From: Flavobacteriales bacterium UBA6772
GTDB lineage: Bacteria; Bacteroidota; Bacteroidia; Flavobacteriales; UBA7430
NCBI GenBank assembly: GCA_002453265.1
Contig: DKGK01000015.1
Location: 6,816 to 40,685 of the forward strand
Direction of reading: 5' to 3'
Length of the DNA stretch: 33,870 bases
The position numbers were made by a program, and so were the translations under genes. Shown one piece after another: positions 1 to 33,870 of the stretch. The notes beneath the pieces are model-generated. The model was given only the letters and a program-made list of their open reading frames with translations, was not told the origin of the DNA and did not search any database. The stretch's first letter is position 1. The number at the start of each line of letters is the position of its first letter.

Positions 1-105
1 AATTCAAAACAATACAAACGCCAAGTATTCTTAAAAACAAACCTTTAATATTTAAGCATTTAAGTTTTTAACCTTTAACAACCAATTTTAAACTCTCAGA
101 AATCT

Positions 106-113
106 TACTTTTG
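106..113 (+). promoter_or_regulatory. Candidate Bacteroidetes sigma-A -7 box (TACTTTTG) for pgk
   Basis: Exact match to the TAnnTTTG consensus, ending 4 nt before ATG 118. No clean TTTG -33 element was seen. Confidence 0.3.
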
Positions 114-117
114 TCAA

Positions 118-6174: not shown

Positions 6175-8361
6175 ATGAAAAAGCTTATAGCAATTACATT
6201 TAGCTTATTTACGGTTATCTCAACAGCAACGGCACAACAATGGTGTGGTTCGATGGAACATCGCGACGAATTGAACTCTGAGCGTCCTGAAGTAGCCAAA
6301 GAAGTAGAAAAAAGATTCAACGCTTTTAACAAGCTACAGCAAGAAAATCAATCTGATGGAGTAAAAAACTCTAATCATTATGTGATTCCAGTTGTCTTTC
6401 ACATCATTCATAAAGGTGGGAATGAAAATATTTCGTTTGATCAAATTGAAGATCAAATGAGAAGTTTAAATGAGGATTTTGCATATATAAATGCAGATAC
6501 AATTAACACTCCTGATGCTTTTAAAGCTTATGCAGGAGATGCAAATATCGAATTTCGTTTAGCACAATTAGATCCTGATGGAAATTGTACGCAAGGTGTA
6601 ACTCGTACTTATTCTTTGCTTACCTCTAATGCGAACAATAATGTAAAAGAATTGATTCAGTGGGATCCTACAAAATACTTTAACGTATGGGTAGTAAGCA
6701 ACATAGATAAAGAGTCTAACTACGGTACAATTTTAGGATACGCTCAATTCCCAGACCAATTATGGGAATACGCTACTACTGACGGTGTGATATTAAGAGA
6801 TGATTACTGTGGTTCTATTGGAACTGCTTCTGCTCAAGTAGGTAGAACATTAACGCACGAGGCAGGACACTGGTTAAACTTACGTCATATTTGGGGTGAC
6901 GACACTTGTGGGAATGATCAGGTAAATGATACACCTATAGCTGCTGAGCCAAATTTTGGAATTTGCGGTTCGGACTATCCGTATCATGTAGGTCCTGCGA
7001 ACGGAGGATGTACAGCCGATACTACAACACAAACTATAGCTCAAGAAAATGGAGAAATGTTTATGAACTATATGGACTATTCTGATGATGATTGTATGAA
7101 TATGTTCTCTTTATTACAAGGAGAAAGAATGCGTTCGGCAATTGATGAATATAGACCAGAGTTAGTTTCTGAAGCTAATTTAATAGCTACCGGAACTAAC
7201 GACGCTTATGAAGCAGTTGTTTGTACCCCTACACCAGAATTTACTGCAGATTATATTTATGGTTGCCCTGGAGATGCCTATTCATTCTTCAGTTCAACTT
7301 ACAATGTTGATTATTCTTTAGATAGTATTGTTGCTTATGAATGGACTTTCGAAGGAGGAGAACCAACTTCATCAATGGATGAAAATCCAGAAGATATAAT
7401 CTTTGAAAATGCAGGGTTCTTTGCCGTTACATTAACAGCAACAAACTCAGCAGGTGAAAAATCATTAGTTAAAGAGAGTTATATTACAGTAACAGATGAT
7501 GAGGCAAATATGTCTTTCCCTTATATCCAAAACTTCGAATCTTCTGAATTCCCAACTTATCCTACAGAAAGTTGGAACTGGCTAATAGGTGCACAAACAG
7601 ACGAAACTTGGTCTAGAACTACAGAAGCTGCAAGTTCAACAATTACTGGAAATGATGGCGGTGTAAACACAGCTGCTTTAAGAATTAGAAGTGCTGAGTT
7701 TTCTGTGGAAGGAGAACTTCATACTCTTATTACACCTACCATTGATTTAAGTGGTGAATCAGCACCTATTAACGGATATTTCGATTTAGCTTATGCTAGA
7801 AAAAACCTAACAACGGATGACGTGCTTAGAGTATATATTAGTGAAGACTGTGGTAGAACTTGGATTGCAAAGAAGAACTATACTACAGAATCGTTAATTA
7901 CAAATGACAGCACGAATATATTCTTACCATTTGTACCAGCAGCAGATGAGTGGGATAGATTCCAAGTAAGTTTAAGTACTTTTGCAGGTGAAAAGAATGT
8001 TCAAATTAAATTTGAATTTATCGGTGAAAATGGAAACTGGTTATACTTAGATAACTTTATTGTTAGTAATTCTAACGAAGTTTCATTAACAGAAAATATT
8101 TTCGAAGAATTATCTATTTACCCTAATCCTTCTAAAGGAGATGTAACTATTGAATTTGAACTTTATAAAAAGGCTTCAATTAACCTCACTTTAAGTAATG
8201 TGTATGGTGCAACTTTAGCTTCAAGAGAAATGAACTTAGATGTTGCTAAAAACAGTGTTCAACTTAAAGAAATGTATCCAAGTCTTAAAGCTGGTGTGTA
8301 CTTTATTCAACTAGAACAAAATGGTTCTAGCATCACAAAAAAGATTGTTATTACAGAATAA
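6175..8361 (+). CDS. Secreted M43 (pappalysin/cytophagalysin-type) zinc metalloprotease with PKD-like and MAM-like modules and a T9SS type-A C-terminal sorting domain
   Basis: 728-aa ORF with signal peptide MKKLIAITFSLFTVISTATAQ. The zinc site HEAGHWLNLRHIWGD lies at 6856..6887 and a Met-turn region follows (FMNYMDY). A PKD-like segment is present (FFAVTLTATNSAGE). The C-terminal domain LSIYPNPSKGD...GVYFIQL...KKIVITE spans 8110..8358. Confidence 0.9.
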   Translation: MKKLIAITFSLFTVISTATAQQWCGSMEHRDELNSERPEVAKEVEKRFNAFNKLQQENQSDGVKNSNHYVIPVVFHIIHKGGNENISFDQIEDQMRSLNEDFAYINADTINTPDAFKAYAGDANIEFRLAQLDPDGNCTQGVTRTYSLLTSNANNNVKELIQWDPTKYFNVWVVSNIDKESNYGTILGYAQFPDQLWEYATTDGVILRDDYCGSIGTASAQVGRTLTHEAGHWLNLRHIWGDDTCGNDQVNDTPIAAEPNFGICGSDYPYHVGPANGGCTADTTTQTIAQENGEMFMNYMDYSDDDCMNMFSLLQGERMRSAIDEYRPELVSEANLIATGTNDAYEAVVCTPTPEFTADYIYGCPGDAYSFFSSTYNVDYSLDSIVAYEWTFEGGEPTSSMDENPEDIIFENAGFFAVTLTATNSAGEKSLVKESYITVTDDEANMSFPYIQNFESSEFPTYPTESWNWLIGAQTDETWSRTTEAASSTITGNDGGVNTAALRIRSAEFSVEGELHTLITPTIDLSGESAPINGYFDLAYARKNLTTDDVLRVYISEDCGRTWIAKKNYTTESLITNDSTNIFLPFVPAADEWDRFQVSLSTFAGEKNVQIKFEFIGENGNWLYLDNFIVSNSNEVSLTENIFEELSIYPNPSKGDVTIEFELYKKASINLTLSNVYGATLASREMNLDVAKNSVQLKEMYPSLKAGVYFIQLEQNGSSITKKIVITE

Positions 8362-14363: not shown

Positions 14364-15419
14364 TTATAGTGTTATTCTAGCACCTATTGAGTGAGGTGAA
14401 TCTAAAGGACTTGCCTTTCGGAAAGAGTAATCTAAACCAAAGCTAGTTCCATTACTCAAAGGAATTTCGAAAGTGAAACCTGCGTTTATTCCAGTGAATA
14501 CTGTAGAACGTGTTTCGGCCTCAAATATACCTTCTTCATAAACATAACCTGATCTAAGCATAAAGTAGGATTTGTATCCGTATTCAAAACCTAAACCATA
14601 TTGGTCTTTAGTAAAAGAATTTGACGTAAAATTACCCGCTAGTGTTAAACGGTTATCTTGATCGATAGTGAAATCGTAAGAACCACCAATATTTAATAAC
14701 GAAGGTAATTCGAAAGCAGCAGATCTAAGCTCATAAGTTTGATCATACTCCTGACCATTAGCTTCATCGTTTGTTAATCTCACACCATTACCATCACCTT
14801 CAAATTTCAATTTAGGACCTACATTTTTTAAAGAAACCCCAAATTTAATTTGACGATTTGCACCGGCCACATACTGAATACCAGCATCTAAAGACATTCC
14901 AGAAGCTTTCATATCTGGAGTGTTTTCAGAAATCATTCTTACAGTAGCACCACCAGAGATGTTGTCGGTAAATTTCTTAGCATAAGAAAGACCAATATTC
15001 ATTACAACTGGAGAATAGGTGGCTCCTGTTCCTTCTGGAGACTCAGAGTTTGTAATATCAATATCACCAAAGTCGATAGAGGTAATAGATAAACCAAGAA
15101 CTCCACCATCGCTAAGTGACTTAGAGAAACCAAAAGCATTTACTTGCATGTCGAAAAGCCAAGAAGTAGACGCGAAAATAAACTCTGTATTTTCGGTACC
15201 TGCCAAACCAGCAACATTTAAGAAAGTAGCTTCAAGCCCTTGAATAGAAGCAGTGTTAATACCACCCCAACCCGATGAACGAGCCCAAGGGTTGATTAAC
15301 AATTCAGTAGCCCCAGCCTGTCCCGAACGCTGTTCGTTACCTGCAAATGCACTACTAGAACAAAGTACTAATAAACCTGTTAAAAGAACAGGTAAGAGTT
15401 GTTTTGTATATTTTTTCAT
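14364..15419 (-). CDS. PorV/PorQ-family (FadL-like) outer-membrane beta-barrel protein
   Basis: Signal peptide MKKYTKQLLPVLLTGLLVLCSSSAFA. The mature N-terminus GATELLINPWARSSGWGG resembles the PorV/PorQ conserved motif. Alternating beta-strand pattern throughout. I chose the start at MKK (15419) rather than 15452. It lies 10-43 nt downstream of the 1339-aa gene. Confidence 0.7.
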   Translation of the reverse strand: MKKYTKQLLPVLLTGLLVLCSSSAFAGNEQRSGQAGATELLINPWARSSGWGGINTASIQGLEATFLNVAGLAGTENTEFIFASTSWLFDMQVNAFGFSKSLSDGGVLGLSITSIDFGDIDITNSESPEGTGATYSPVVMNIGLSYAKKFTDNISGGATVRMISENTPDMKASGMSLDAGIQYVAGANRQIKFGVSLKNVGPKLKFEGDGNGVRLTNDEANGQEYDQTYELRSAAFELPSLLNIGGSYDFTIDQDNRLTLAGNFTSNSFTKDQYGLGFEYGYKSYFMLRSGYVYEEGIFEAETRSTVFTGINAGFTFEIPLSNGTSFGLDYSFRKASPLDSPHSIGARITL

Positions 15420-15462
15420 AACCATAGTCGTATGAATTTTAGTCTTTAACAATATTGTTCTA

Positions 15463-18400
15463 CTAGAATGAATCTAAATCAATTGGACGAAGTGCACCAA
15501 ACCATTTAATAACTTTCTCACCGTATTCCTTTCCATCTACATGTATAATATATACACCCGATGCAATCGCAATATTGTAATTGTTCTTTAAATCCCAGTC
15601 CCAACCAGTAACATTTACTTCACTATCTAAATCTACACGTCTTACGAGAGTACCCGACACATTGTAAATAGAAATAGTACATACTTTAGGCAGATTAGTA
15701 ACTCTTACACGAGTATCTATTTGACCAAGTTCATAGTTATTATTACCGTAGTATGGATTAGGAACAACTTTAATAAGGTCCATAGCACTTTTAGCCGTTT
15801 CTAAATCATTCTTAACAGTCATGATAGATTCTGTAGAGAACGTTAATAAAGGATTACCATTGTTAATATCAGAGGCAGTACAATCATCGGTATCTTCTAA
15901 ATTATACCTAGAATAACTTTTAGAAACCCTAAGTTGAACCTCGATATTACCGTCAGACAAAATAGAATTTTGAGAGGTAAGTGGAATGGATGTCCAAGCC
16001 ATATCCTTGAATACTTTTACACTATTTACAAAAGAACTCATATTTATTAACCTACTGTATAATGGGTGATCCTCTTCATTATCTCCAGCATATTCGCTCA
16101 TGGCAACATATAAGTAATGACGACCACCAAGAATAAAACTGGTAGGATCAAAAATATCTCCATCTAATATAGTAGAAGTAGGATTCCAAATCATATCGTT
16201 CCCGTTATGGTCAGGTATGGTAGAAGCTTCACCAAACATCATGTTTACACGAATTCCTCTTTCTAAATCGAATGCATAACCAGGAAACCAAGAGAATCCA
16301 GTAGATCCAGAAGCTTCGTCCAATCCTTCTTTGTCAACAGATGGAGAAGATTTTAAAGTCATTCTATCATCTGTATCACCTGTTTCGATTACAGGAACAC
16401 GAGTCCAAAGCGATTTATCAGCTGTATAAACAATATCTACAGAAGATAATGTATTTAACTTTTCTCTAGCACTAATACTTGGAGCATGTGGGAAAGGAGA
16501 ATCGTCTTTATCATACCCCACTAAAGCATAAGGAGCCCACATACCATTAAGTACATTTTCGTAAGTAGAATTTTCATCTACCCAAGCATCAACATTTCCA
16601 AAATCAATATAAATAGGATCAGTAACAGAAGGGTCAGGATCTGGATTAGAAGCTGTACCAGAACGAATCCAATTTAATGGGTGTACGAATACACCATCTG
16701 GACCTTGAAAAAAGAAATCATTATCAGGAACAAAGTCTAACCAAGAAGTAGAATTATCTTTAATTAAGGTAGCACTAATTAGTCCATTTGTACCTTTAGT
16801 GTCATCACCAGCATCAATTCCATTTACGATTGTAACAGAAAGTCCCCAGTCTGCAATGATTTGCTCATTCTTAACACTCAATGTAGTGTCTGAACTTACA
16901 GAAACACCAGTTGTCTCATTTGTTAAGACCCATCTAGCAGTATCATTTACAGCATTCATTACAAAAGTAAAGTCTGTGTTTTCTGGAACACTTAAAGGAT
17001 CAATAACTTTAATATCTACTGGAGAACCATCAACAGCATAACCAGTACTAGTAGTACAAATTGAAGGATCTAGTAAAGCTAATTTCATTTCAGATGTAAA
17101 CTGTAGCTCTAAACCACCATTTCCTGAACCTTCTAAACGAGTCATATTAGGAATAGTTCCGTAATCTGCGTTTTGAATAGTACCGTTTGATTCTGCAGTT
17201 GTAATATGAGGAATGGCAGAATATTGCTTAATATTTTTACGACCAGCTAAGAAAGGTTTTTTCTGACCTTCGAAACTTCCTGCATAAATATTATCAGGAT
17301 CTGGCACTACATCTTGCTTATACTCAATGAATTCGTTATATCCGTAAGCAATAGCAGTAAAGTAGTACGTTTTATTATTAATTAAAGTACGATCTCCAGA
17401 TGCAAATAAATCTTGATTTACCACAAAGGAGTGGATAATTCCTTCATTTGCTGCTTGTAGCGTCATGTTTGTAGGAACATCAGCTTCTAAAGCTAAACTA
17501 AAATTATAGTTAGTAAGATTTGCGATAGGAGAAATAGTTTCTTCTGAAGTGACCATTCCATTATCGTCTCTATAGTTTTCAATATCACATTGGAAAACCA
17601 TTCTAGCTCTATCAATATCGTAAACGTCCGCAGCCGTAACTGTTTCGTCTTTTAATTGGAATATTTGATAACCTTCGAAAACGTAAGAGTCTCTATAAGG
17701 AAGTGTTTGTTCTTCGTCATAAAAGCCAGAAATATTAATTTGATCTTGTTCTAGATAATCTTCATTAGAATTTTGGCTGTTGTTAGAAATATTAGCAGCG
17801 TTAGATAAGGTAATAATAATTTCCTTATCTAGTTCTTGAATTGCCATATCTGGAGCATCAGGACCGTCAAGTACCTCGAAACAGATATCGAAAAGTTTTT
17901 GAGCTTTGTCATCTGCAATACGCATAAGCTCTACAGACGCCCATGCACCACCAGAATTAGCACGTGCCCAAACAACACCTGTTGTAATGGTGTTTAAAGC
18001 ACCAGGCTCAAGCGTAAAAGGACCTGCAGATTGGACAAAACGTCTATCATTTGGTACGTTTCCAGCAATTTGTTCTGTCCACTGCTCATCAAATGCAGGG
18101 TCAGTAGTTCCAGGGAACATATAATTACATAGTGGACTAGATGGGTTTCTACCATCAGCACCATAAGTCATTGGTTTATTATCTAACCATTTACCTTGTA
18201 AGTAATTGTAAAAGTCTTGTGCTAAGTCTGGATTACCAGTAACTGTACCATCGTTATTAAAGTACATAAACTTAGACATAATGATCTGTTCTCCGGCTTC
18301 ATCAATAATACCATCTAAATCATTATCAATACCATCACCTTCATCGGCAATAGGACCTCTAAAGAAATCTACTCCAATTGCAGGTGGATTTGAACCATAA

Positions 18401-19482
18401 CCAGCAGCAGTTTCATCGTCTTCATCACCATTGTAACAGTACCCTAAACCTCTGGCAACATCACAACCAACAAAATCATCTTGATAATTTCCTAAATCTG
18501 GATCAACATGAACCCCGAAGTACGCCTCGTTTAATGCATTATGAGAACGATTGATTAACTTATAGTTGTAAAAAGTCATGTTGTTAATCTCATCGTTGGT
18601 AGAAAAAGCAAAGGCTTGAGCCTGTATTTCTAAACCAATTGGCTCTATAGAACCAGAAGCAGTATGAGACTCACCTTTATCGTTATAAACCCACCAAAGC
18701 GTTTGATCACCAAAAAGTATATCTGCTTCTTGACAGTTAAAAGAACCATCTAGATTGTACTCTGGATAATCTCCAGCTGATGCATTATAAACACCATCTC
18801 CATTTACATCTCGGAAAGGAGCAAGCGTTTCCAATGCGTAATATGGACTTGTACCTACTTGTTCATCGTAACCGTCGAAAGCATTATCATTTTGATCATC
18901 GTCTTCACGGTTACCTGGGTAATTTAAAATAGAAAGCGGAATAGAGTAATCAGGAAATTCAAGACTTGGATTCTCTGAAATAGAATAAGCCACAAACTGC
19001 TCTACTTCTGCTCTAGTAATAACATGGTGGTAATCATACTTCGCACAAATATTAGCTTCAGTAGTACCGTATTTATTGTTAGGACTTCCATCTGCACTCA
19101 ATCGTACATTATCTATAGGTCCTGGCCAAAAGTCGTTACCAGATTGACGATATGTTTGAGCAGCAACTTTAAGTTGGTCATCATCGTCCATACCACCAAT
19201 CCATAGAGAACCAGCAAACAATGAATGTTTCCCACTATTTTTAGGGATTTCGTATTTCCCATCAGATAAATTCCACCACATATCACCACCATTCAAAATG
19301 GTAGTCTTAACATTATTAATATCTAATAATGTTTGAGCAGTACCAGCAGCACAATTAAAGGCCAACGACTGAGTTGGAGTAGTAACTTCGCCACCAGAAT
19401 AATTAACATTTTCTTTTGCTTGAGCTCCCAAACCTAGGGTTGCAAAGAAAACGTACAGCGTATTTTTGATTGTCTTTTTCAT
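15463..19482 (-). CDS. Large secreted protein of unknown function with a T9SS-like C-terminal domain
   Basis: 1339 aa counted from MKKTIKN (the ORF track starts 7 codons earlier, at 19503). Signal peptide ...ATLGLGAQA. An acidic Ca-binding-like loop DGIDNDLDGIIDE lies at about 18298..18348. The C-terminal domain VVPNPYYG...ISIYNVSGTLV...GVYIIHV...KVIKWFGALRPIDLDSF spans 15466..15778. Confidence 0.8.
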   Translation of the reverse strand: MKKTIKNTLYVFFATLGLGAQAKENVNYSGGEVTTPTQSLAFNCAAGTAQTLLDINNVKTTILNGGDMWWNLSDGKYEIPKNSGKHSLFAGSLWIGGMDDDDQLKVAAQTYRQSGNDFWPGPIDNVRLSADGSPNNKYGTTEANICAKYDYHHVITRAEVEQFVAYSISENPSLEFPDYSIPLSILNYPGNREDDDQNDNAFDGYDEQVGTSPYYALETLAPFRDVNGDGVYNASAGDYPEYNLDGSFNCQEADILFGDQTLWWVYNDKGESHTASGSIEPIGLEIQAQAFAFSTNDEINNMTFYNYKLINRSHNALNEAYFGVHVDPDLGNYQDDFVGCDVARGLGYCYNGDEDDETAAGYGSNPPAIGVDFFRGPIADEGDGIDNDLDGIIDEAGEQIIMSKFMYFNNDGTVTGNPDLAQDFYNYLQGKWLDNKPMTYGADGRNPSSPLCNYMFPGTTDPAFDEQWTEQIAGNVPNDRRFVQSAGPFTLEPGALNTITTGVVWARANSGGAWASVELMRIADDKAQKLFDICFEVLDGPDAPDMAIQELDKEIIITLSNAANISNNSQNSNEDYLEQDQINISGFYDEEQTLPYRDSYVFEGYQIFQLKDETVTAADVYDIDRARMVFQCDIENYRDDNGMVTSEETISPIANLTNYNFSLALEADVPTNMTLQAANEGIIHSFVVNQDLFASGDRTLINNKTYYFTAIAYGYNEFIEYKQDVVPDPDNIYAGSFEGQKKPFLAGRKNIKQYSAIPHITTAESNGTIQNADYGTIPNMTRLEGSGNGGLELQFTSEMKLALLDPSICTTSTGYAVDGSPVDIKVIDPLSVPENTDFTFVMNAVNDTARWVLTNETTGVSVSSDTTLSVKNEQIIADWGLSVTIVNGIDAGDDTKGTNGLISATLIKDNSTSWLDFVPDNDFFFQGPDGVFVHPLNWIRSGTASNPDPDPSVTDPIYIDFGNVDAWVDENSTYENVLNGMWAPYALVGYDKDDSPFPHAPSISAREKLNTLSSVDIVYTADKSLWTRVPVIETGDTDDRMTLKSSPSVDKEGLDEASGSTGFSWFPGYAFDLERGIRVNMMFGEASTIPDHNGNDMIWNPTSTILDGDIFDPTSFILGGRHYLYVAMSEYAGDNEEDHPLYSRLINMSSFVNSVKVFKDMAWTSIPLTSQNSILSDGNIEVQLRVSKSYSRYNLEDTDDCTASDINNGNPLLTFSTESIMTVKNDLETAKSAMDLIKVVPNPYYGNNNYELGQIDTRVRVTNLPKVCTISIYNVSGTLVRRVDLDSEVNVTGWDWDLKNNYNIAIASGVYIIHVDGKEYGEKVIKWFGALRPIDLDSF

Positions 19483-19505
19483 ATACATACAATTTTCTAC
19501 CAAGA

Positions 19506-22500
19506 CTAAAAGTCTAGTGTTACACCTAAACGAAGCGTTCTTGGACGCGTGTAATTATTTGGGTTATTTAACTTTAATGAATATAAGTCAACGTAAGAGT
19601 TTGGGTCAACTTTATTTGGAACATCGGTTAAACCAACGGCAGAAGTAAGATAACCATCGTCATCTGCATTACCAGTATATTGGTAAATAGACACAATATT
19701 CTTAGTGTTCAATAAGTTTTGAACTTGGAAATAAACATTCATAGAAGTCGATTTCTTATCCTCTCCTTCACCCCAAGAAATATCGAAGCTTTTGTTAACT
19801 CTCATATCCATACGGAATCTCCACGGTAAACGTGATCCGTTTACACTTCCCTCTAAGTTAGATCTATCGTTTTCTCCAAAAACAGCCTCACGAGTAACAT
19901 TTAACTGTCGTGAGAATGGCGTTCCCGAACCTGCTGTAGCAACAAGGTTTACACCTGCATTTTCGAATATTGGATATCCTTTTACAGTAGGACCGTTGTA
20001 TTTGTTTCCTGAACCGTAACGGAAATCCATACTTGCAGTTAAATTATGACGTTGATCGTAATCTAAAGGCAAAGTAGTTCTTAAGTTAGGTTGGTCAGAA
20101 TTTACAATGTTTACACCTGAAGTTGATGAAGAACCAGAACCATCTGCAAACTGTAAAGTATAGTTTGCATTAAAGCTAACATTTCCTGTTCTACGCATTT
20201 CGTATGCAACAGACAATCCTTTTACAGTACCAAAGTCAATATTACCAAAAGTAAAATAGTCTTTTGGGTAAGCAAAGGCAACTTTAGTGTACTGAATCAT
20301 GTCTCTCATTTCTCTATAGAAAGCAGATATAGAAAGAGCAGAACTAGAAGATAAAGTTTGTTTAAACCCTAATTCGTAATCAGTAGTACGTTGAGATTTT
20401 AAATTTGGATTATTAATAGTTGTAGCTGTTAAGTGAGCTAAGTATAAATAATCTGTAGGATCCATTCTGTTTCTACTCGGACGTTGCGTTAATACATCGT
20501 AGTGAGCATAGAAAATAGCTTCATCAGAAATAGGAAAGTTGAAAGAAATACGAGGCATGAAAGATACTTGCGGTGTATAATCTTCAAATGCATCAGCACT
20601 TAATCCAGCATTTAAAGGATCCGTACCGGAATCCGCATCAGGATCTGCCAACATTGGAATAACACCAGTAGAAACATCTAATACTTTAGGATCTGTAATA
20701 GGAAGACCTTCTGCATTGTACCAGTTATCTCCATTTCTATATCCTGTAATATACGCAGCACTTACGCTATTATCAACATACACAACATAGTCGTCGCCAA
20801 TATTTGTTGGATGAGTTCCAAAATCGTTAACCTCTCCAGCTGTAAGTACATTGTAAAGCGAGTACCTGTCTTTTAATACTTCTTGGTTGGCATCGTATCT
20901 ATCTACACGAACACCAATATTGAAGATTAAATCTTCGAAAGCGAATTTATCTTGAATATAACCCGCTACATAAATAGGTTGAAAAGCACCCATTTCACGT
21001 TTATAATCTCCATTTTCATCTTTGTCGGTTAAGAATTCTTTCATTCCTGGCTGAACCCCTTCCAATTTATTACCCTCTGTATCGTAACCGTACCATGTAC
21101 CGTAAGACGAATTAGGATTTTGGGTAAGTAACTCATCAGCACTAAACATAGAAATATCGAAGTCAGAAGGCAAATAAGTATGAATATCTACAATTTGGTC
21201 GTAGCCAATTTGATGCGAATCTCTAAACTTAGTTGCGAAACTTGTCATTTCGTCGTAGTTGTAAATGTTTTGCTGCCCAACAAGAGTACCTTGATCATTT
21301 AAAAATTCGTAAGAACCTTCTTCGAAACCAATGTATTTATTTACTTGCTGTTGAGCTAAAGTCCATAATCCTACCGGTGTAACACTGTAGTATCTATCGT
21401 CTCTTTGCTCGTATTCGAAACCAAACTGTAATGCATGGTCATTAATATCGGCAGATGCAGAACCTGTAAAACGGAATTGAGCATCTTTACTTCTGTTGTA
21501 TCCGTTGTACTCTCTACCAGTATTATACCACACAGAATAAACGTTATCTGTACGATCTCCGTTTACTGCAGCACCTATACCACTTACTTGTGCCAAGTTA
21601 GTAATCCCTTGATTATCTAAATAGTCGAAATAAGTTTGCGTATAATTTGTAGCATAAGGATTTAAATTAGCACCTTCGAAAGCATAATTTGTAATTACGT
21701 TCGTTTGCTCAGCAAAATTGTAAAAAGGTACATTTTGTTGTAATTCTTCGTCAAAGTAAAAGCCACCAACTTCTACCATAGTATCAATAACACCACTTGG
21801 TGTATTCCATAATACATTTAAACTATCATCTGGGCTCCAAGGAGTATTGTAGTCTAAATTACGTTCTGGCGTAAATTTACCAATATACCCATAGTTAAAT
21901 AAATTGTCTTTGTGATCTGAATCTTGAGTAGTCTCATTGTCTTGAGAATAATCTGCCTGTAAAGTAAAGAATGCATTCTTTAAAGTAGAAGAAGATTGCT
22001 CTTCATCTGACGCACCAAAACTCTGCTGTAAACGAGAATAAACTCTCCAAGAATTCTTTATCGTTTCAGGATTATTTTCAGGATTGAATAAGCTATATGT
22101 ATAAATATACCCTCTATTTTTCGAATAAGAAAAGTTACCACCTAGAGTAATGTTTGTATTTTTAGAAGGCTTAAAATCTATTTTACCTTGTAAACTCGCA
22201 TTTACTTTCCCAACATTCTCTTTAGTGTCAACATATTCAAGATCCTCCATAGTAACAAATTCGGAAGCTTTTAAAGCTTGAACCTCACCTTGGCTACTAC
22301 TAAACAATAATGGGTTTGCTTGTAGCTCAGCCATTACATCGTCTTTAACCTTATACATTCCAACGGCAGAAGGATCTTCATTCTTTATCTTTTCGTATTC
22401 ACCAGACAAAAAGAAACCTAAGATAGAGTTACCATCTTTCTTCTTTAAAGGACCCGACAAGTTGAAACCTAATAGATTGTATCCATAAGGATCAAGAAGG

Positions 22501-23219
22501 CTAGAAGTTACAACTTCTACCCCACCGAAGAAATCGTTCGATGGACCTCGTGTTGTTATACTAATTACACCACCCATAGCATCACCATAAGAAGCAGGTA
22601 AACCACCTGTAATTACAGTCATTTGCTCAATTGCAGATTGTGGTATTTTATTCGAAGCTCTTACCTTAACCCCATCGATATAAAAGAAAGTAGCATCAGA
22701 ACGTGCACCACGCACATTTAAATCTCCACCTTCATCCTCCTGATAAATACCGGCAGTTTGTGCAGCCACCGACTGAACATCACGCGTTGGTAATGCAGTA
22801 ATTTCTTCCTTAGTTTTAGTAGTACCAGTTTTATCTGGATCGATAAGAGGGACTACATATTCAACTAATTCTACCGTTCCCAATACATCGGCCTCAACTT
22901 TAAGACCTGCGTTGATAAAAGTAATCTTGCTAGAAGAAACCAAAACTTCGGTAATCTCTTTGGTTGCGAAACCAATAAAAGACACTTTCACGGTGTATCG
23001 ACCAGGGTCTATTGGTTTAATAGTATACTTACCATCAAAATCCGCAACAGCCCCATCAATGACGGTTCCATTTGATTCTATCACAATATTTGCCATTGGT
23101 ACAGGCTCTCCTGTATCAAACTCTGTGATTGTACCTTTTAAGGTACCTGATTGCGACTGTGCTATAGAATAGTTTGAAATCCCGAGCAAGGCAATCACAG
23201 CTAATAATTTTCGCAGCAT
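19506..23219 (-). CDS. TonB-dependent-receptor-like outer-membrane protein with an N-terminal carboxypeptidase-regulatory-like domain
   Basis: 1237-aa ORF with signal peptide ...NYSIAQ. A CarboxypepD_reg-like segment (GTLKGTITEFDTGEPVPMANIVI...DGKYTI..PGRYTVKVSFIGF) is followed by a plug-like segment (LNVRGARSD..FYIDGVKV...IEQMTVITGGLPASYGDAMGGVISITT). A long barrel ends in the OMP-type terminal motif LRLGVTLDF. No SusD-like partner is adjacent. Confidence 0.85.
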   Translation of the reverse strand: MLRKLLAVIALLGISNYSIAQSQSGTLKGTITEFDTGEPVPMANIVIESNGTVIDGAVADFDGKYTIKPIDPGRYTVKVSFIGFATKEITEVLVSSSKITFINAGLKVEADVLGTVELVEYVVPLIDPDKTGTTKTKEEITALPTRDVQSVAAQTAGIYQEDEGGDLNVRGARSDATFFYIDGVKVRASNKIPQSAIEQMTVITGGLPASYGDAMGGVISITTRGPSNDFFGGVEVVTSSLLDPYGYNLLGFNLSGPLKKKDGNSILGFFLSGEYEKIKNEDPSAVGMYKVKDDVMAELQANPLLFSSSQGEVQALKASEFVTMEDLEYVDTKENVGKVNASLQGKIDFKPSKNTNITLGGNFSYSKNRGYIYTYSLFNPENNPETIKNSWRVYSRLQQSFGASDEEQSSSTLKNAFFTLQADYSQDNETTQDSDHKDNLFNYGYIGKFTPERNLDYNTPWSPDDSLNVLWNTPSGVIDTMVEVGGFYFDEELQQNVPFYNFAEQTNVITNYAFEGANLNPYATNYTQTYFDYLDNQGITNLAQVSGIGAAVNGDRTDNVYSVWYNTGREYNGYNRSKDAQFRFTGSASADINDHALQFGFEYEQRDDRYYSVTPVGLWTLAQQQVNKYIGFEEGSYEFLNDQGTLVGQQNIYNYDEMTSFATKFRDSHQIGYDQIVDIHTYLPSDFDISMFSADELLTQNPNSSYGTWYGYDTEGNKLEGVQPGMKEFLTDKDENGDYKREMGAFQPIYVAGYIQDKFAFEDLIFNIGVRVDRYDANQEVLKDRYSLYNVLTAGEVNDFGTHPTNIGDDYVVYVDNSVSAAYITGYRNGDNWYNAEGLPITDPKVLDVSTGVIPMLADPDADSGTDPLNAGLSADAFEDYTPQVSFMPRISFNFPISDEAIFYAHYDVLTQRPSRNRMDPTDYLYLAHLTATTINNPNLKSQRTTDYELGFKQTLSSSSALSISAFYREMRDMIQYTKVAFAYPKDYFTFGNIDFGTVKGLSVAYEMRRTGNVSFNANYTLQFADGSGSSSTSGVNIVNSDQPNLRTTLPLDYDQRHNLTASMDFRYGSGNKYNGPTVKGYPIFENAGVNLVATAGSGTPFSRQLNVTREAVFGENDRSNLEGSVNGSRLPWRFRMDMRVNKSFDISWGEGEDKKSTSMNVYFQVQNLLNTKNIVSIYQYTGNADDDGYLTSAVGLTDVPNKVDPNSYVDLYSLKLNNPNNYTRPRTLRLGVTLDF

Positions 23220-25584: not shown

Positions 25585-26610
25585 TTAAACTATAAAATCT
25601 TCTTTGCTCATACCTAACCATTCCAATGCAGACTTACTTAAAAGTTGTTCTTTTTGTGCATCGTCCCATGGCATGTTATTTATCAATTGTCCAGGCTGCA
25701 ATTCCCCTAAGGGGAAAGGATAATCAGTACCTAAAGCAATTTTATCGGCTCCAATAACATCAACAATGTACTCCAGCATTTTAGGGTCGTGTACAAGACT
25801 GTCAATATAAAACTTTCCTATATAATCTCTAGGATGCTTTTTATTATCAACTGCACATAAGTCTGGTCTAACGTCAAAGCCATGCGAAACCCGACCAATT
25901 GTTGAAGGAAAAGAACCACCACCATGAGCAAAAGCAACACGAAGTTCTGGCAATCTTTCGAAAACGCCACCAAAGATAAAGGAACAAATAGCCCTAGAAC
26001 TTTCTGCGGGCATGCCCACCAACCATGGTAGCCAATATTTATCCATATGCTCCTTAGCCATCATATCCCAAGGATGTACAAATACGGACATATCTAATTC
26101 CTGACAGGCTTCGAAAATTGGGAAAAACTCAGCTTCGTTTAGATTCTTATTGTTTACATGCGTTCCAATTTGAATCCCTTTTAATCCAATTTTTTTACAA
26201 CGTTTTAATTCTTGTATCGCCAAATTAGTGTCTTGCATTGGCAAAGTACCCAAGCCTGCAAAACGGTTTGGGAAACGACTTACGATATCAGCAATATGGT
26301 CGTTTAAAAACTCCGCTACTTCTAATGTATCTTTAGGTTCTGCCCAATAAGAAAACATCACAGGAACGGTAGATAAAACTTGTACATGAACACCATGCTC
26401 ATCGCATTCTTTCATTCTACTTTCTGCAGACCAACAATTATCATCCACTTCACGAAAAAATGTGTCGTCCATCATCATTTTAGCACAGCAAGGTTTGTGA
26501 TGCTCTAAATTGATAAATCCTCCGTAACCAAATTTTTCTTTAAAATTAGGAATATCTTTTGGGAGGATGTGTGTATGAATATCTATGGTAAATAAATTCT
26601 TTTGAGGCAT
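25585..26610 (-). CDS. 2-amino-3-carboxymuconate-6-semialdehyde decarboxylase (ACMSD; amidohydrolase_2 family)
   Basis: 341-aa ORF. IDIHTHILPK, FGYGG, LSTVPVMFSYWA, GLGTLPMQ, VFVHPWDM, YWLPWLVGMPAE, FAHGGGSFP, GTDYPFPLGE are near-identical blocks to animal ACMSD as I recall it. It lies 8 nt downstream of the HAAO gene. Confidence 0.85.
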   Translation of the reverse strand: MPQKNLFTIDIHTHILPKDIPNFKEKFGYGGFINLEHHKPCCAKMMMDDTFFREVDDNCWSAESRMKECDEHGVHVQVLSTVPVMFSYWAEPKDTLEVAEFLNDHIADIVSRFPNRFAGLGTLPMQDTNLAIQELKRCKKIGLKGIQIGTHVNNKNLNEAEFFPIFEACQELDMSVFVHPWDMMAKEHMDKYWLPWLVGMPAESSRAICSFIFGGVFERLPELRVAFAHGGGSFPSTIGRVSHGFDVRPDLCAVDNKKHPRDYIGKFYIDSLVHDPKMLEYIVDVIGADKIALGTDYPFPLGELQPGQLINNMPWDDAQKEQLLSKSALEWLGMSKEDFIV

Positions 26611-26618
26611 AATAATTT

Positions 26619-27149
26619 TTAAATAAATCGTATATCAGTATCCATTTCAGTTCCACATTTGTCGCAGGTACGCAAGTTTTTATTTGCGTAAAAATCTTTA
26701 AAACGAGGAAGGAAATCTTTTTCAATATTTGTTAATGGGAAATAAGTTTCGTGTAATTTATGGTTACAATTATCACAAAACCATAAAAGTCCGTCCATAT
26801 CATCTGTTCCTTTACGAACCTTTTCTATAACGAGTCCTACAGAACCTTCGGAACGGGAAGGCGAATGAGGAATTTTCCCAGGAAGTAAGAACATCTCCCC
26901 TTCTTTTATAGGAATATCTATAGCTTTTCCATCTTCTTGAATACGAACATTAATATCACCTTCCACTTGGAAAAACCATTCTTCGCTTTTGTTATAATGA
27001 TAATCTTTACGAGCATTTGGTCCGCCAACAATCATAACAATAAAATCGCCAGCTTGTTTATACAGATTTTTATTTCCGACCGGAGGCTTTAATAAATCGC
27101 GGTTTTCCGCAATCCACTTATGTAAATTAAAAGGTTTTTGTATAGACAT
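26619..27149 (-). CDS. 3-hydroxyanthranilate 3,4-dioxygenase (HAAO)
   Basis: 176-aa cupin with GGPNARKDYH, EEWFFQVEGD and FLLPGKIPHSPSR (iron ligands). A C-terminal Cys4 rubredoxin-like site is present (CDNCNH...CDKCGTEM). Confidence 0.9.
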   Translation of the reverse strand: MSIQKPFNLHKWIAENRDLLKPPVGNKNLYKQAGDFIVMIVGGPNARKDYHYNKSEEWFFQVEGDINVRIQEDGKAIDIPIKEGEMFLLPGKIPHSPSRSEGSVGLVIEKVRKGTDDMDGLLWFCDNCNHKLHETYFPLTNIEKDFLPRFKDFYANKNLRTCDKCGTEMDTDIRFI

Positions 27150-29398: not shown

Positions 29399-31795
29399 AT
29401 GTTCGTATTAAAAAGAGATGGTCGTAAAGAGGCTGTTAAGTTTGACAAAATTACTTCCCGCATCCAAAAGATGTGTTATGGCTTAGATGACTTAGTGAAT
29501 TCTACTACGGTAGCCATGAAAGTTATTGAAGGTATTTACGAAGGAGTTACAACTTTTGAGCTAGATAACCTTGCAGCAGAAGTTGCTGCTTCGCTAACTG
29601 TAAAACACCCAGACTACGCAAAGCTTGCTGCCCGTATTGCGGTCTCTAATTTACATAAGAAAACTAAAAAATCGTTCTCCGAAACGATGACAGACTTGTT
29701 TGAATATGTTAACCCGGTTACTAACCAGGAAGCACCAATGCTTGCTAATGATGTACACCAAATTATTCAAGATAATAAAGAGGTTTTAGATTCTACAATT
29801 ATTTATGACAGAGACTTTAGCTACGATTATTTTGGATTCAAAACGCTGGAGCGTTCTTACTTACTACGTAGAAATGGTCAGGTAGCTGAGCGTCCACAAC
29901 ACATGTTGATGCGTGTTTCTATTGGGATTCACAAAGACGACATTCCGGCGGCTATTGAGACATACGAAATGATGTCGAGAAAGTATTTCACACACGCTAC
30001 ACCTACATTATTTAATGCAGGTACACCAAAACCACAAATGTCTTCTTGTTTCTTATTAACTATGAAAGACGATAGTATCGATGGGATTTACGATACTTTA
30101 AAACAATGTTCTAAAATTTCTCAATCTGCTGGGGGTATCGGATTAAGTATTCATAATGTACGTGCTAAAGGATCTTATATCCGCGGTACAAATGGTACTT
30201 CAAATGGAATTGTACCTATGTTACGTGTATTTAACGATACAGCTCGTTATGTAGATCAAGGTGGAGGGAAACGAAAAGGTTCTTTCGCTATTTACCTTGA
30301 ACCTTGGCATGCCGATATATTCGATTTCTTAGACTTAAGAAAAAACCACGGTAAAGAAGAAATGCGTGCGCGTGACTTATTCTACGCTATGTGGACTCCA
30401 GATTTATTCATGAAACGCGTTGAAGCTAATGGCGAATGGACTTTAATGTGTCCTAACGAATGCCCTGGTTTATCCGATGTTTACGGAGCTGAATTTGTTG
30501 AATTATACGAGAAATACGAAGCTGAAGGCAAAGGTCGTAAGACTATTAAAGCCCGTGAAGTTTGGGAAAAAATTGTAGAATCTCAAATTGAAACAGGAAC
30601 TCCTTATATGTTGTATAAGGATGCATGTAACGAAAAATCAAATCAAAAGAACTTAGGGACTATAAAGTCGTCTAACCTTTGTACTGAGATTGTTGAATAT
30701 ACTGCTCCAGACGAAGTTGCTGTTTGTAACTTAGCTTCTATAGCACTACCAATGTTTGTGAAAGATGGGAAGTTTGACCACCAAAAACTTTACGAAGTTA
30801 CCTATAAAGTAACTAAAAACTTAAACGTTGTTATAGACCGTAACTACTATCCGGTACAGGAGGCTCGCAACTCTAATATGCGTCACCGTCCAATTGGATT
30901 AGGAGTACAAGGATTAGCAGATGCATTTATACTATTGCGTTTACCATTTACATCGCCAGAAGCGAAACAGCTGAATAAAGATATTTTTGAAACACTTTAT
31001 TTTGCCTCATTAAAAGCCTCTAACGATTTAGCAAAAATAGACGGTGCTTATGAAACTTTCAAAGGGTCGCCAATTTCTAAAGGACAATTCCAATTCGATA
31101 TGTGGGGTGTGGAATCCAAAGACCTTTCTGGTCGATGGGACTGGGATACACTTCGTGAAGAGATAAAAGTTGATGGTGTGCGTAACTCGCTTTTATTAGC
31201 ACCTATGCCAACAGCATCAACATCTCAAATTCTTGGAAACAACGAATGCTTTGAACCTTATACCTCAAATATCTACACGCGGCGTGTCCTTTCTGGTGAG
31301 TTCATTATCGTAAACAAGCACTTATTAAAAGACTTAGTGAAGTTAGGTTTATGGGATGATGAGTTGAAAAACGAAATCTTACGCACCAACGGATCTATCC
31401 AAAATATCGATATTATTCCGCAGAACATAAAAGACCTTTACAAAACCGTTTGGGAATTGAGTATGCGAGACATCATCGATATGGCTGCAGAACGTGGGCA
31501 ATTTATCGACCAATCACAGTCGCTTAATTTATTTGTAGAAAATGCTAACCTAGGAAAACTTACCTCTATGCATTTCTATGGCTGGAAGAAAGGTTTGAAA
31601 ACTGGTATGTACTACTTGAGAACAAAATCGGCAGTTGATGCGATTAAGTTTACCGTTCAAAAACAATCTAAAGCTCAAACGAAACCTGTGGTTGCAGAAG
31701 TAACTGAGACTCCAGAAACACCGGAGCTTACGCCCGAAGAACAATTAGCTTGCTCTATTGAGAATCCAGACGATTGCGTTTCTTGTGGGTCGTAA
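29399..31795 (+). CDS. nrdA: Ribonucleoside-diphosphate reductase alpha subunit (class Ia R1, eukaryote-like)
   Basis: 798-aa ORF with an N-terminal ATP-cone ([16 protein letters not shown]). Active-site blocks are SSCFLL, SNLCTEI and [10 protein letters not shown]. The C-terminal redox shuttle is CVSCGS. Confidence 0.97.
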
Positions 31796-31825: not shown

Positions 31826-31854
31826 CCTCTCGAGCAATCGAGGGGCTTTTTTTT
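31826..31854 (+). terminator. Rho-independent terminator after nrdA
   Basis: CCTCTCGA-GCAA-TCGAGGGG hairpin (one G-U pair) followed by C and a T8 run. Confidence 0.8.
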
Positions 31855-31957
31855 ACAATTAAAAAACTAGAATATTAGACTAAGTACAAAGACGCCAACA
31901 ATATAAAAATATTCGTGGAATAATATTTGCAAAGCAAATAATGATTAAACAAAAACA

Positions 31958-33870
31958 ATGAAACACTTATACTTCATCCTACTCAGTACTTTTTTACTTC
32001 TAACACCCTTAGCGAAAGCACAATGTGGAACTGCTGATACCGAAACTTTTATTAGCAGTCAAGCAACTTTAGATGAACTCTCTTCTTGTGAAGTTTTTCA
32101 GGGAGACCTTCACATATTAGGTAGCAGTATTATAAATATCGAAGCTTTATCTTCCTTATTAATTATACAAGGATCGATCTATATTTACGATACCGAAATA
32201 GAGAACATTGATCCTTTAAACGGTTTAATGAATGCTGAAGAAATTAATATTTACAACAATGATTTACTTGTCGCTTGTTGCGCCTCATTAGACTGGCAAG
32301 AAGCCATTTCTTTCGGAACTATACTCGCAATAAATATTATAGAAAATGCGGAAGGCTGTAATTCTTTTGCAGAGGCTCAGGCCACATGCTTAGGTTTAAT
32401 TCCTGGATGTACAGACGATAATGCCGTAAACTACAACCCTCAAGCTACTTTTGATGATGGTTGCTTGAACGGTCCAGATCTTCAAGTTTCTGTTAATACT
32501 ATTCTAAATTCTTTAGAAATAAACTCCTTTACAAGTTCTGATGAATGTTTAATTGCAGAAGGCTGTATAACAGGCTTAGGAGAACGAAAAACACTTCGCT
32601 TTACAACTTCTATTTCAAATTATGGAAATGAAGATTTTTACATAGGTCAATCTGGTGGAGCAGATAACTTAAACGATAATTTTTATTGGGACGACTGCCA
32701 TGGTCACGCCCATTATGAAGGTTATGCTAGCTATAGAATTTATACATATCCAAGCTTGGGTCCTAGCGAAACAATTGGACATAAAAATGGATGGTGTGTA
32801 ATGGATTTAGGTGGAGCTATTGCTAGTGAAGCTCCAGAAGGAGCAAATTACCCTTCTTGTACTTTTACCTATGGTTGCAGTATTATGGGAATTAGTGCTG
32901 GATGTTCAGACACTTATGGTTCAGGAATTTCTTGCCAGTGGGTTGATGTTACAGACCTAGAAGATGGAGAATATGTTTTAGCGGTTTCTTCGAATATGGA
33001 AACAGACAATTATGTTCCAATGTACGAGATAGATTTTTCAAATAACGTTGTTTATGTATTATTTGAAATTGAAACAAATGATCAGGGAGAAACAACAGTT
33101 TTAGCTGCTTCAGAATTTGATGGATCTTCAATAAGCGATGTATGTACACCCAATATTGATTTAGTTGATTTAGGCTATAATTTCGCAGACAATGTAGAGG
33201 TTAATGGAACTCAAGTACAAATGCCTAATGCATTTTTAAACGAGTATTATACCCAGCCAGTACAGTTTTTATTAACCGAAACATTAAATTTAAATGGTGA
33301 AATAATAACGATTGATTCTCTTGTAGTTAATGATATTTCTAACCTACCTTTAGGATTGAGTTGGGCTTGTGAACCTCTATCGTGTTCTTTCCAAGTCGGA
33401 AGTTCTTGTTTAGGTATTAGTGGAATCTCTACACTTACAGGATCGTTTGATGCGACAATTACCTCTACATTATATTTTACCGACAATCAAGGAAATATAC
33501 AAACCCTTGCACTTCCTTACGCAGGTGGGAATACTTGGGTAGATGCTATTTTGGATGAAGAATACTCGGTTTTCGAACCATTTAATCCTACAATAAATGT
33601 TACCGTAGAATTTCCAATTTATGGCTGTATGGATTCCTTGGCAATAAATTTCAATGAACTAGCTACTTATAGCGATGGCTCTTGCGAACTTCTTGACCTA
33701 GGCTGTACAGATCCTTTTTCTTTAAATTTTGATGAAGAGGCCAATACAGAAGATGGTTCTTGCGAATACTGTGCAGAAGGAGTAGAATGGGTAGCTCAAA
33801 TGAACTTATACGATTCTTATGGAGATGGCTGGAATGGAAATGAATACTCTATTATAAACCAATACGGCGA
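31958..33870 (+). CDS. Secreted multidomain protein with a lysyl-oxidase-like catalytic domain (3'-truncated by the window edge)
   Basis: This ORF is not in the supplied track. Hand translation from ATG 31958 gives 637 codons with no stop up to the window end. Signal peptide MKHLYFILLSTFLLLTPLAKA. The LOX-like blocks are WDDCHGHAHY, GHKNGWCVMD, CSDTYGSGISCQWVDVTDLEDGEYVL and NNVVYV. Confidence 0.85.
   Translation, partial: MKHLYFILLSTFLLLTPLAKAQCGTADTETFISSQATLDELSSCEVFQGDLHILGSSIINIEALSSLLIIQGSIYIYDTEIENIDPLNGLMNAEEINIYNNDLLVACCASLDWQEAISFGTILAINIIENAEGCNSFAEAQATCLGLIPGCTDDNAVNYNPQATFDDGCLNGPDLQVSVNTILNSLEINSFTSSDECLIAEGCITGLGERKTLRFTTSISNYGNEDFYIGQSGGADNLNDNFYWDDCHGHAHYEGYASYRIYTYPSLGPSETIGHKNGWCVMDLGGAIASEAPEGANYPSCTFTYGCSIMGISAGCSDTYGSGISCQWVDVTDLEDGEYVLAVSSNMETDNYVPMYEIDFSNNVVYVLFEIETNDQGETTVLAASEFDGSSISDVCTPNIDLVDLGYNFADNVEVNGTQVQMPNAFLNEYYTQPVQFLLTETLNLNGEIITIDSLVVNDISNLPLGLSWACEPLSCSFQVGSSCLGISGISTLTGSFDATITSTLYFTDNQGNIQTLALPYAGGNTWVDAILDEEYSVFEPFNPTINVTVEFPIYGCMDSLAINFNELATYSDGSCELLDLGCTDPFSLNFDEEANTEDGSCEYCAEGVEWVAQMNLYDSYGDGWNGNEYSIINQYG

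Follow-up and report, generated by a model that had tools for sequence, protein, structure and literature searches.

The DNA stretch analyzed here comprises 33,870 nucleotides (nt) of contig DKGK01000015.1 from Flavobacteriales bacterium UBA6772 and is called the window throughout. At its right end lies the beginning of a long gene whose product carries a predicted lysyl oxidase (LOX) domain. Direct translation of 31958..33870 on the plus strand reproduced the 637 sense codons without a stop that a preliminary description of this DNA had reported, and the open reading frame (ORF) is missing from the output of the ORF lister because the reading frame leaves the window before any stop codon. Sequence and structure comparisons confirmed a LOX-type copper/quinone amine-oxidase domain in which every catalytic residue is intact. 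It is highly probable in our view that the gene encodes a genuine, catalytically competent LOX-type amine oxidase that is exported via a type IX secretion system (T9SS), an estimate which does not extend to the choice of substrate.

The missing 3' part of the gene was recovered from metagenomic data. A 59-nt tag from the window end has an exact match in one marine-metagenome contig (ORXF01001786, locus L005), and BLAST aligned window positions 33321..33870 with L005 704..1253 over 550 nt at 100% identity. Joined to L005 1254..4047, the window ORF encodes 1,568 amino acids (aa) followed by a stop codon, and the joined product is colinear with and 77% identical to the protein of an orthologous locus in a Flavobacteriales metagenome-assembled genome (MAG; L001, 1,569 aa). 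Since the joined ORF of 1,568 codons ends in a T9SS sorting domain, the presence of this domain is confirmed for the gene itself, of which the window covers about 40%. The initial reading as a LOX gene with such a domain expected at its 3' end therefore holds, with the correction that the window contains only this ~40% of a multi-domain protein. Of contig L005, only positions 704 onward were used for the 3' end. Positions 1..703 carry the unrelated 3' end of a DISARM drmA gene (PADLOC DrmA, 160 bits) and about 30 codons of the next gene, and at the 703/704 junction this foreign sequence is fused in frame at LOX codon 455. Since the window is colinear across codon 455 with L001 and with a second full-length orthologue from a Cryomorphaceae MAG (L002, 1,589 aa), the junction arose either by chimeric assembly or by a rearrangement specific to one strain, whose LOX gene would then have been truncated by a defence island. 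The start methionine and the length of the signal peptide are backed by the colinear orthologues, which have the same start position.

The assignment to the LOX family is based on several searches. Pfam family PF01186 (Lysyl_oxidase) matches aa 205-367 with 80.3 bits, far above the cutoff of 20.4 (E = 2e-22, profile positions 47-190 of 204), and the orthologues reach 81.3 (L001) and 72.2 bits (L002), whereas none of the NCBIfam models matches the LOX ORF. A phmmer search against all PDB sequences returned human LOXL2 (5ZE3) as the sole match (E = 6e-15). The AlphaFold2 model of aa 161-400 has a predicted local distance difference test score (pLDDT) of 88.6 and a predicted template modelling score of 0.86, and Foldseek against the PDB found chains A and B of 5ZE3 as the only matches at E <= 1e-3 (E = 7e-13, TMq 0.64, 226 columns, ~25-27% identity). 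The significant PF01186 match and the placement of the predicted structure on the LOXL2 catalytic domain, both named beforehand as checks of the LOX assignment, were thus obtained. When all 637 aa are modelled, confidence is limited to the LOX core and a portion of the N-terminal domain.

LOX domains as such are neither surprising nor new in Bacteroidetes, which are among five bacterial clades carrying LOX (Grau-Bove et al. 2015, PMC4448552). When 1.84 billion cluster representatives (50% identity) were scanned exhaustively with HMMER, 2,757 matched at E <= 1e-3, 1,179 at E <= 1e-10 and 179 at E <= 1e-30; relatively speaking the family is uncommon, yet it is sizeable. Most of the close relatives are Bacteroidota proteins of ~780-900 aa containing PF01186 and the T9SS sorting domain PF18962, and one GenBank entry (HRH71085.1) is already named 'lysyl oxidase family protein [Flavobacteriales bacterium]'. 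The archaeal LOX from Haloterrigena (HTU-LOX) is an active, copper-dependent enzyme that is sensitive to beta-aminopropionitrile and has a relaxed specificity (Pestov et al. 2019, PMC6452851). It oxidizes lysine polymers and many small amines, its native function was termed cryptic, and amine oxidase activity is undetectable in native Haloterrigena cells (PMC6452851). In general, the physiological role of prokaryotic LOX has been called 'enigmatic' or 'cryptic' (PMC4448552, PMC6452851). With the 2015 report on Bacteroidetes, the GenBank names, the ~2,757 representatives and an active archaeal enzyme, the statement that LOX proteins are rare and essentially uncharacterized in bacteria was an overstatement. 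The protein adds a member with an unusually long architecture to a bacterial LOX family that has been reported and annotated before. This long architecture is limited to a handful of proteins (P0049, L001, L002, L004 and the fragments P0001-P0005). Our literature search found no paper that joins LOX to the T9SS, and searches aimed at 'bacterial lysyl oxidase' and at a prokaryotic lysyl-tyrosylquinone (LTQ) cofactor found none either.

For the active site, human LOXL2 served as reference. Its crystal chain comprises residues 318-774, with H626/H628/H630 and Y689 as metal ligands, LTQ formed from K653 and Y689, Ca2+ ligands D549, L550, E722, D724, N727 and N728, and five disulfides that stabilize the catalytic domain (PMC5899467). 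As to numbering, the construct begins at residue 318, and H309/H311/H313 of the chain are H626/H628/H630. In the phmmer alignment H248/H250/H252 fall on these three histidines, K276 on K653 and Y320 on Y689, which are the columns to which the preliminary description had assigned the copper histidines and the LTQ lysine and tyrosine. Its coordinates were all exact: WDDCHGHAHY corresponds to aa 244-253 (nt 32687..32716), NNVVYV begins at N362, and the lysine and tyrosine codons at 32783..32785 and 32915..32917 are K276 and Y320. The three histidines, the lysine, the tyrosine and four framework cysteines are invariant in all 43 homologues compared, distant ones included. The same alignment puts E357/D359/N362/N363 on the LOXL2 Ca2+ ligands E722/D724/N727/N728. 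D174-L175, which precede the start of the HMMER alignment, are the presumed counterpart of D549-L550, judged by the position of the PDL motif. Conservation of this putative Ca2+ site is almost as high (D174 in 42, L175 in 41, E357 in 42, N362 in 41 and N363 in 42 of the 43 homologues, with D or N at position 359).

Most of the LOXL2 cysteines have equivalents as well (C247=C625, C280=C657, C307=C673, C316=C685, C326=C695 and C197/C203=C573/C579; matched by sequence). Among the 43 homologues, the common Bacteroidota family keeps the LOXL2 cysteine spacing (C, C+6, C, C) in the loop following the LTQ lysine, whereas the sub-family of the window has lost the C+6 cysteine and gained the later C301, so that the number of cysteines in this region is four as in LOXL2 (C657, C663, C673, C685).

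The LOX domain (aa 172-386) is the sole recognizable enzymatic module of the protein and is most likely catalytically competent. It is preceded by the predicted signal peptide and by an N-terminal domain with a sub-threshold match to Pfam PF01030 (20.7 bits, cutoff 21.8), which the AlphaFold2 model represents by alternating strands and helices for aa 22-100 (pLDDT 73-85) and with pLDDT below 50 for aa 101-147. The post-LOX region (aa 387-555) has no Pfam match and is 74% (L001) and 60% (L002) identical to its orthologous counterparts. It is followed by the first of four 'YDSYGDGWNG ... EISW' modules, in the following GDGW/EISW modules, which only begins in the window. Beyond the window follow the remaining GDGW/EISW modules, two 'EGWNLIS' repeats of ~85 aa each and finally the T9SS sorting domain. 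The GDGW/EISW modules comprise ~100 aa each with the motifs 'YDSYGDGWNG' and 'E(I/T)SW(D/E)L' (aa 605-1160 of the L001 protein and the L005 continuation), and in one of the four the motif order is circularly permuted. Neither these modules nor the EGWNLIS repeats, the N-terminal domain or the post-LOX region gave a significant Pfam or PDB sequence match. In the common Bacteroidota family of ~780 aa, LOX is likewise preceded by a GDG-type module on its N-terminal side, and the presence in both architectures suggests a recurring LOX-associated accessory domain.

The domains are connected by a mini-module of ~20 aa, 'CTDxxAxNYNxxAxxDDGSC', which has no Pfam family and is present in seven to nine copies per full-length orthologue (L001 and L002, including aa 700-1180). 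It seems to explain weak matches to the unrelated T9SS, PKD and cohesin proteins P0043 and P0046-P0048. A consensus version of it, 'GCxDPxACNYNPxA', lies directly upstream of LOX in the ~780-aa family. A link of these linkers to two papers on a cysteine-rich repeat and horizontal gene transfer was rejected; the repeats are different ones and LOX is cited there in passing.

Two terminal signals point to export via the T9SS. At the N-terminus, inspection revealed the classical n/h/c pattern MKH-LYFILLSTFLLLTPL-AKA|Q of a predicted signal peptide, in which cleavage by signal peptidase I after Ala21 would expose Gln22. This fits the 'Q-rule' of Bacteroidetes (PMC5837995, PMC10653852), and the L001 orthologue has a signal peptide of equal length likewise ending in ..KA/QC. 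At the C-terminus, PF18962 (Por_Secre_tail; TIGR04183) was found with 40.3 bits in the L005 continuation, 40.1 bits in L001 and 34.2 bits in L002 (cutoff 27). The window also encodes a member of the PorV/PorQ family, which matches NF033709 with 145 bits but stays under the equivalog thresholds for PorV and PorQ, and a second T9SS cargo, namely an M43 (pappalysin-like) metallopeptidase that includes a PKD domain and Por_Secre_tail. Judged by these domain matches, both genes are consistent with a T9SS-proficient organism; none of the T9SS core genes sprA/sov and porKLMN is located within the window.

Both full-length orthologues contain PF01186 and Por_Secre_tail, and the relatives place the host as Flavobacteriales/Cryomorphaceae-like, in line with the initial assignment to a Flavobacteriia-type genome. 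Of all segments of the protein, the LOX domain is conserved best (91% identity to L001 and 82% to L002, versus 80% and 67% overall). It also has the lowest ratios of non-synonymous to synonymous substitution rates (dN/dS) in the protein, 0.045 (L001) and 0.096 (L002), compared with ~0.08-0.17 for the ORF; these ratios are approximate, as synonymous sites are close to saturation. The gene is under strong purifying selection. A further orthologue (L004 6001..10699; ENA ERZ1699696 contig_11032) was called as two proteins, one of 362 aa containing LOX and one of 1,197 aa containing the sorting domain. With otherwise identical synteny, this split reflects a frameshift or stop, caused either by a sequencing error or by real pseudogenization.

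A recent foreign origin of the gene was rejected, since its composition matches that of its neighbors: the GC content is 35.9% in the LOX ORF and 34.7% in the window, and the GC content at third codon positions (GC3) and the codon usage are native. The genes upstream are housekeeping genes (S-adenosylhomocysteine hydrolase, amidohydrolase, 3-hydroxyanthranilate dioxygenase, DUF3109, nrdB and nrdA), and the order DUF3109-nrdB-nrdA-LOX is common to the window, L001 and L004. An intergenic stretch of ~160 nt precedes the LOX start codon. The terminator-like hairpin at its beginning, after nrdA, points to separate transcription of the LOX gene. The region also contains a near-match to the Bacteroidetes -7 element TAnnTTTG with the spacing one base off, which we do not claim as promoter. 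The genes downstream of LOX differ among L001, L002 and L005, and the neighborhood therefore gives no hint to a substrate or pathway.

Elsewhere in the window, the PorV/PorQ family gene belongs to a tightly packed cluster of three genes, probably an operon. The 3-hydroxyanthranilate 3,4-dioxygenase gene adjoins an Amidohydro_2 (ACMSD-like) gene; by their family assignments the two are a fragment of the kynurenine/NAD pathway and have no functional link to the LOX gene. All features are compiled in Table 1.

Table 1. Features of the LOX gene and of its surroundings in the window (window positions; aa numbering of the LOX protein).
Feature	Position	Strand	Basis or remark
LOX gene, first 637 of 1,568 codons	31958..33870	+	open at window end; continuation from L005
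Predicted Sec signal peptide, aa 1-21, MKHLYFILLSTFLLLTPLAKA	31958..32020	+	sequence inspection; model helix aa 2-14
N-terminal alpha/beta repeat domain, aa 22-148, Receptor-L/leucine-rich-repeat-like	32021..32401	+	sub-threshold match
Two-Cys linker CTDDNAVNYNPQATFDDGC, aa 151-169 (19 aa)	32408..32464	+	first 'CTDxxAxNYNxxAxxDDGSC' mini-module
Predicted lysyl-oxidase-family catalytic domain, aa 172-386	32471..33115	+	PF01186, AlphaFold2, Foldseek, dN/dS
D174-L175, equivalent of LOXL2 D549-L550 Ca2+ site	32477..32482	+	PDL motif position (presumed)
Copper motif H248-G-H250-A-H252	32699..32713	+	alignment with LOXL2 H626/H628/H630
K276, LTQ lysine precursor	32783..32785	+	aligned to LOXL2 K653, GHKNGWC vs GHKASFC
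Cys-rich loop C280, C301, C307, C316	32795..32905	+	compared across 43 homologues
Y320, LTQ tyrosine precursor, fourth metal ligand in precursor state	32915..32917	+	aligned to LOXL2 Y689
E357-I-D359-F-S-N362-N363, Ca2+ site	33026..33046	+	aligned to LOXL2 E722, D724, N727, N728
Post-LOX beta-rich region, aa 387-555, family unassigned, possibly immunoglobulin-like	33116..33622	+	AlphaFold2 strands aa 442-520, low to moderate confidence
Two further Cys mini-linkers, aa 557-576 and aa 583-602	33626..33763	+	motif
Beginning of first of four 'YDSYGDGWNG ... EISW' modules	33770..33870	+	repeat comparison with orthologues
Intrinsic-terminator-like hairpin and T-run at end of upstream nrdA	31826..31855	+	8-bp stem, 5 GC pairs, T8 tail
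nrdA	29399..31795	+	upstream neighbor of LOX gene
3-hydroxyanthranilate 3,4-dioxygenase and Amidohydro_2 (ACMSD-like) genes	25585..27149	-	
Three-gene cluster	14364..23219	-	tightly packed, probably operon
CarboxypepD_reg and Plug TonB-dependent-like outer-membrane protein, 1,237 aa	19506..23219	-	
1,346-aa protein without Pfam family, sub-threshold C-terminal T9SS sorting domain	15463..19503	-	
PorV/PorQ family protein	14364..15452	-	NF033709
M43 (pappalysin-like) metallopeptidase, PKD domain, Por_Secre_tail	6175..8361	+	second T9SS cargo

For maturation and action of the enzyme we propose a mechanism of which all steps are inferred from sequence features. The protein would be exported by Sec, and signal peptidase I would cut after Ala21 with exposure of Gln22. 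The disulfide-rich domains would fold, Cu2+ being held by H248/H250/H252 and, as long as the precursor state lasts, also by Y320, and D174/L175/E357/D359/N362/N363 would hold a structural Ca2+. Copper and O2 would turn Y320 into dopaquinone, to which the epsilon-amine of K276 would add to form LTQ by self-processing. The C-terminal sorting domain would route the protein via the T9SS, resulting in release or anchoring at the cell surface. The extracellular LOX domain could then catalyze the reaction R-CH2-NH2 + O2 + H2O -> R-CHO + NH3 + H2O2, and positioning or targeting of the enzyme is presumably the task of the non-catalytic modules. The T9SS export route in combination with the surface-protein context suggests that the protein acts outside the cell, probably at its surface. 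As substrates we favor peptidyl-lysine and other amines bound to polymers, on particles or on cell surfaces, because the protein is giant, modular and surface-displayed with adhesin-like accessory domains; this assumption, drawn by analogy, is the weakest step of the proposal. The suggestion in the preliminary description that host, algal or matrix proteins could be acted upon is speculative.

Several observations weigh against this interpretation. Activity, copper loading and LTQ formation are deduced here solely from conserved residues, and the correspondence of K276, Y320 and the histidines was taken from alignment columns. Several disulfide-forming cysteines of LOX do have equivalents, as noted earlier, but the framework resembles that of LOXL2 only in part: the C732-C746 pair of LOXL2 is absent, and the equivalent of C663 is shifted to C301. 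Moreover, about 12 additional residues, compared with the common Bacteroidota family, lengthen the loop that follows the LTQ lysine, which could alter substrate access. No gene that could be a conserved operon partner, for example one for a copper chaperone, a catalase, an aldehyde dehydrogenase or a transporter, is found either upstream or downstream (window, L001, L002 and L005). The 3' end originates from a contig with 3x coverage whose 5' end is chimeric or rearranged. Finally, the accessory modules match nothing characterized, and the targeting argument is thus purely one of analogy.

The choice of substrate is where a competing explanation deserves most attention. It is possible, if somewhat unlikely, that the protein works at the cell surface on small primary amines in free form (lysine, polyamines, amino sugars or taurine-like compounds) and does not cross-link proteins. 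It would thereby scavenge nitrogen through the release of NH3, or produce H2O2 that acts as an antimicrobial or disperses biofilms. This would be in line with the relaxed specificity of the sole characterized prokaryotic LOX, by which many small amines are oxidized (PMC6452851). Furthermore, the organism comes from a marine metagenome, an environment in which dissolved amines are a nitrogen source. Marine bacteria are known to make H2O2 via LodA, and phytoplankton bear cell-surface amine oxidases. However, a modular surface protein of 1,568 aa with ~1,000 residues in binding-type accessory modules would be a costly route to small solutes, and no ammonium or amine transporter and no catalase is linked to the gene in the neighborhoods of the window, L001, L002 and L005. 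The evidence separates neither reading decisively from the other, and small amines have to be regarded as a serious alternative to polymer-bound ones.

Far less probable is the assumption that the LOX domain is a pseudo-enzyme, meaning a catalytically silent structural or binding module within an adhesin. The overall adhesin-like look of the protein and the failure to detect amine oxidase activity in native Haloterrigena cells (PMC6452851) would agree with this view, whereas two findings argue against it: all 43 homologues have retained the five residues for cofactor and metal, and within the protein dN/dS is lowest in the LOX domain. Such residues are typically lost in pseudo-enzymes. That the gene is an artefact (a pseudogene, a mis-assembly, eukaryotic contamination or a very recent transfer from animals) is effectively refuted and has next to no probability left, since the split of the L004 orthologue into 362 and 1,197 aa and the joining of codon 455 to a DrmA fragment in L005 are outweighed by an unbroken window ORF colinear with intact orthologues of 1,569 and 1,589 aa at a dN/dS of ~0.08-0.17, by native GC, GC3 and codon usage and flanking housekeeping Flavobacteriales genes in conserved synteny, and by a Bacteroidota-specific T9SS sorting domain and Q-rule signal peptide combined with an identity to LOXL2 of ~25-27%.

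The reading as an exported LOX-type amine oxidase adds a clear, intact example under selection to the prokaryotic LOX proteins, which are central to the debate on the origin of the animal enzyme that cross-links the matrix. What is of remaining value is the unexplored connection between T9SS and LOX together with the unclassified accessory modules, the giant architecture being the less ordinary part. As our literature search found no link of LOX to the T9SS, the T9SS-LOX proteins of Bacteroidota could be a tractable entry to bacterial LOX function, or they could provide biotechnology with secreted enzymes that cross-link proteins. Going further, one may speculate that T9SS-displayed LOX in its giant and ~780-aa forms constitutes a Bacteroidota-wide extracellular amine-oxidase system, which in marine Flavobacteriia would serve aldehyde-based covalent modification or cross-linking of lysine-bearing polymers (on particles, prey or the own surface), or nitrogen harvest and H2O2 production. 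We consider this broad idea doubtful; if it is true, the GDGW/EISW modules would be a new family of substrate-targeting domains.

A comparison with known systems shows what is common and what is particular to this protein. The LodA lysine-epsilon-oxidases of marine Gammaproteobacteria are secreted quinone enzymes that also oxidize the lysine epsilon-amine and release H2O2 and NH3, but their fold and cofactor are unrelated to LOX, the latter being a cysteine tryptophylquinone made by the partner flavoprotein LodB. Homology of LodA to the present protein was not found, and a LodB-like partner is absent here. Compared by description, the LOX of Haloterrigena is also prokaryotic and has both PF01186 and a signal peptide, the latter predicted in the present case; it is archaeal, has a simple architecture and does not use a T9SS.

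With animal LOX and LOXL1-4 (reference LOXL2, 5ZE3) the protein shares the catalytic fold, the H-x-H-x-H motif, the lysine and tyrosine of LTQ, the residues of the Ca2+ site and most cysteines of the disulfide framework, and both are secreted, in the present case by prediction. In contrast to LOXL2, to which its identity is only ~25-27%, it has no SRCR domains, no propeptide and no C732-C746 pair, the C663 equivalent is moved and the post-lysine loop is longer. In addition, its LOX domain is located near the N-terminus of a bacterial surface protein of 1,568 aa on the T9SS route, whose substrates cannot be collagen or elastin. The ~780-900-aa LOX proteins of Bacteroidota, represented by HRH71085.1, are half the size and carry a GDG-type module N-terminal to LOX, whereas here a Receptor-L-like domain precedes LOX and ~1,100 residues of other modules follow it, with further differences in cysteine pattern and LTQ-side loop length. 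Nevertheless, these proteins come from the same phylum, are 40-50% identical in the LOX domain with the same invariant residues, and share with the protein described here both the T9SS sorting domain and the short cysteine linker directly upstream of LOX.

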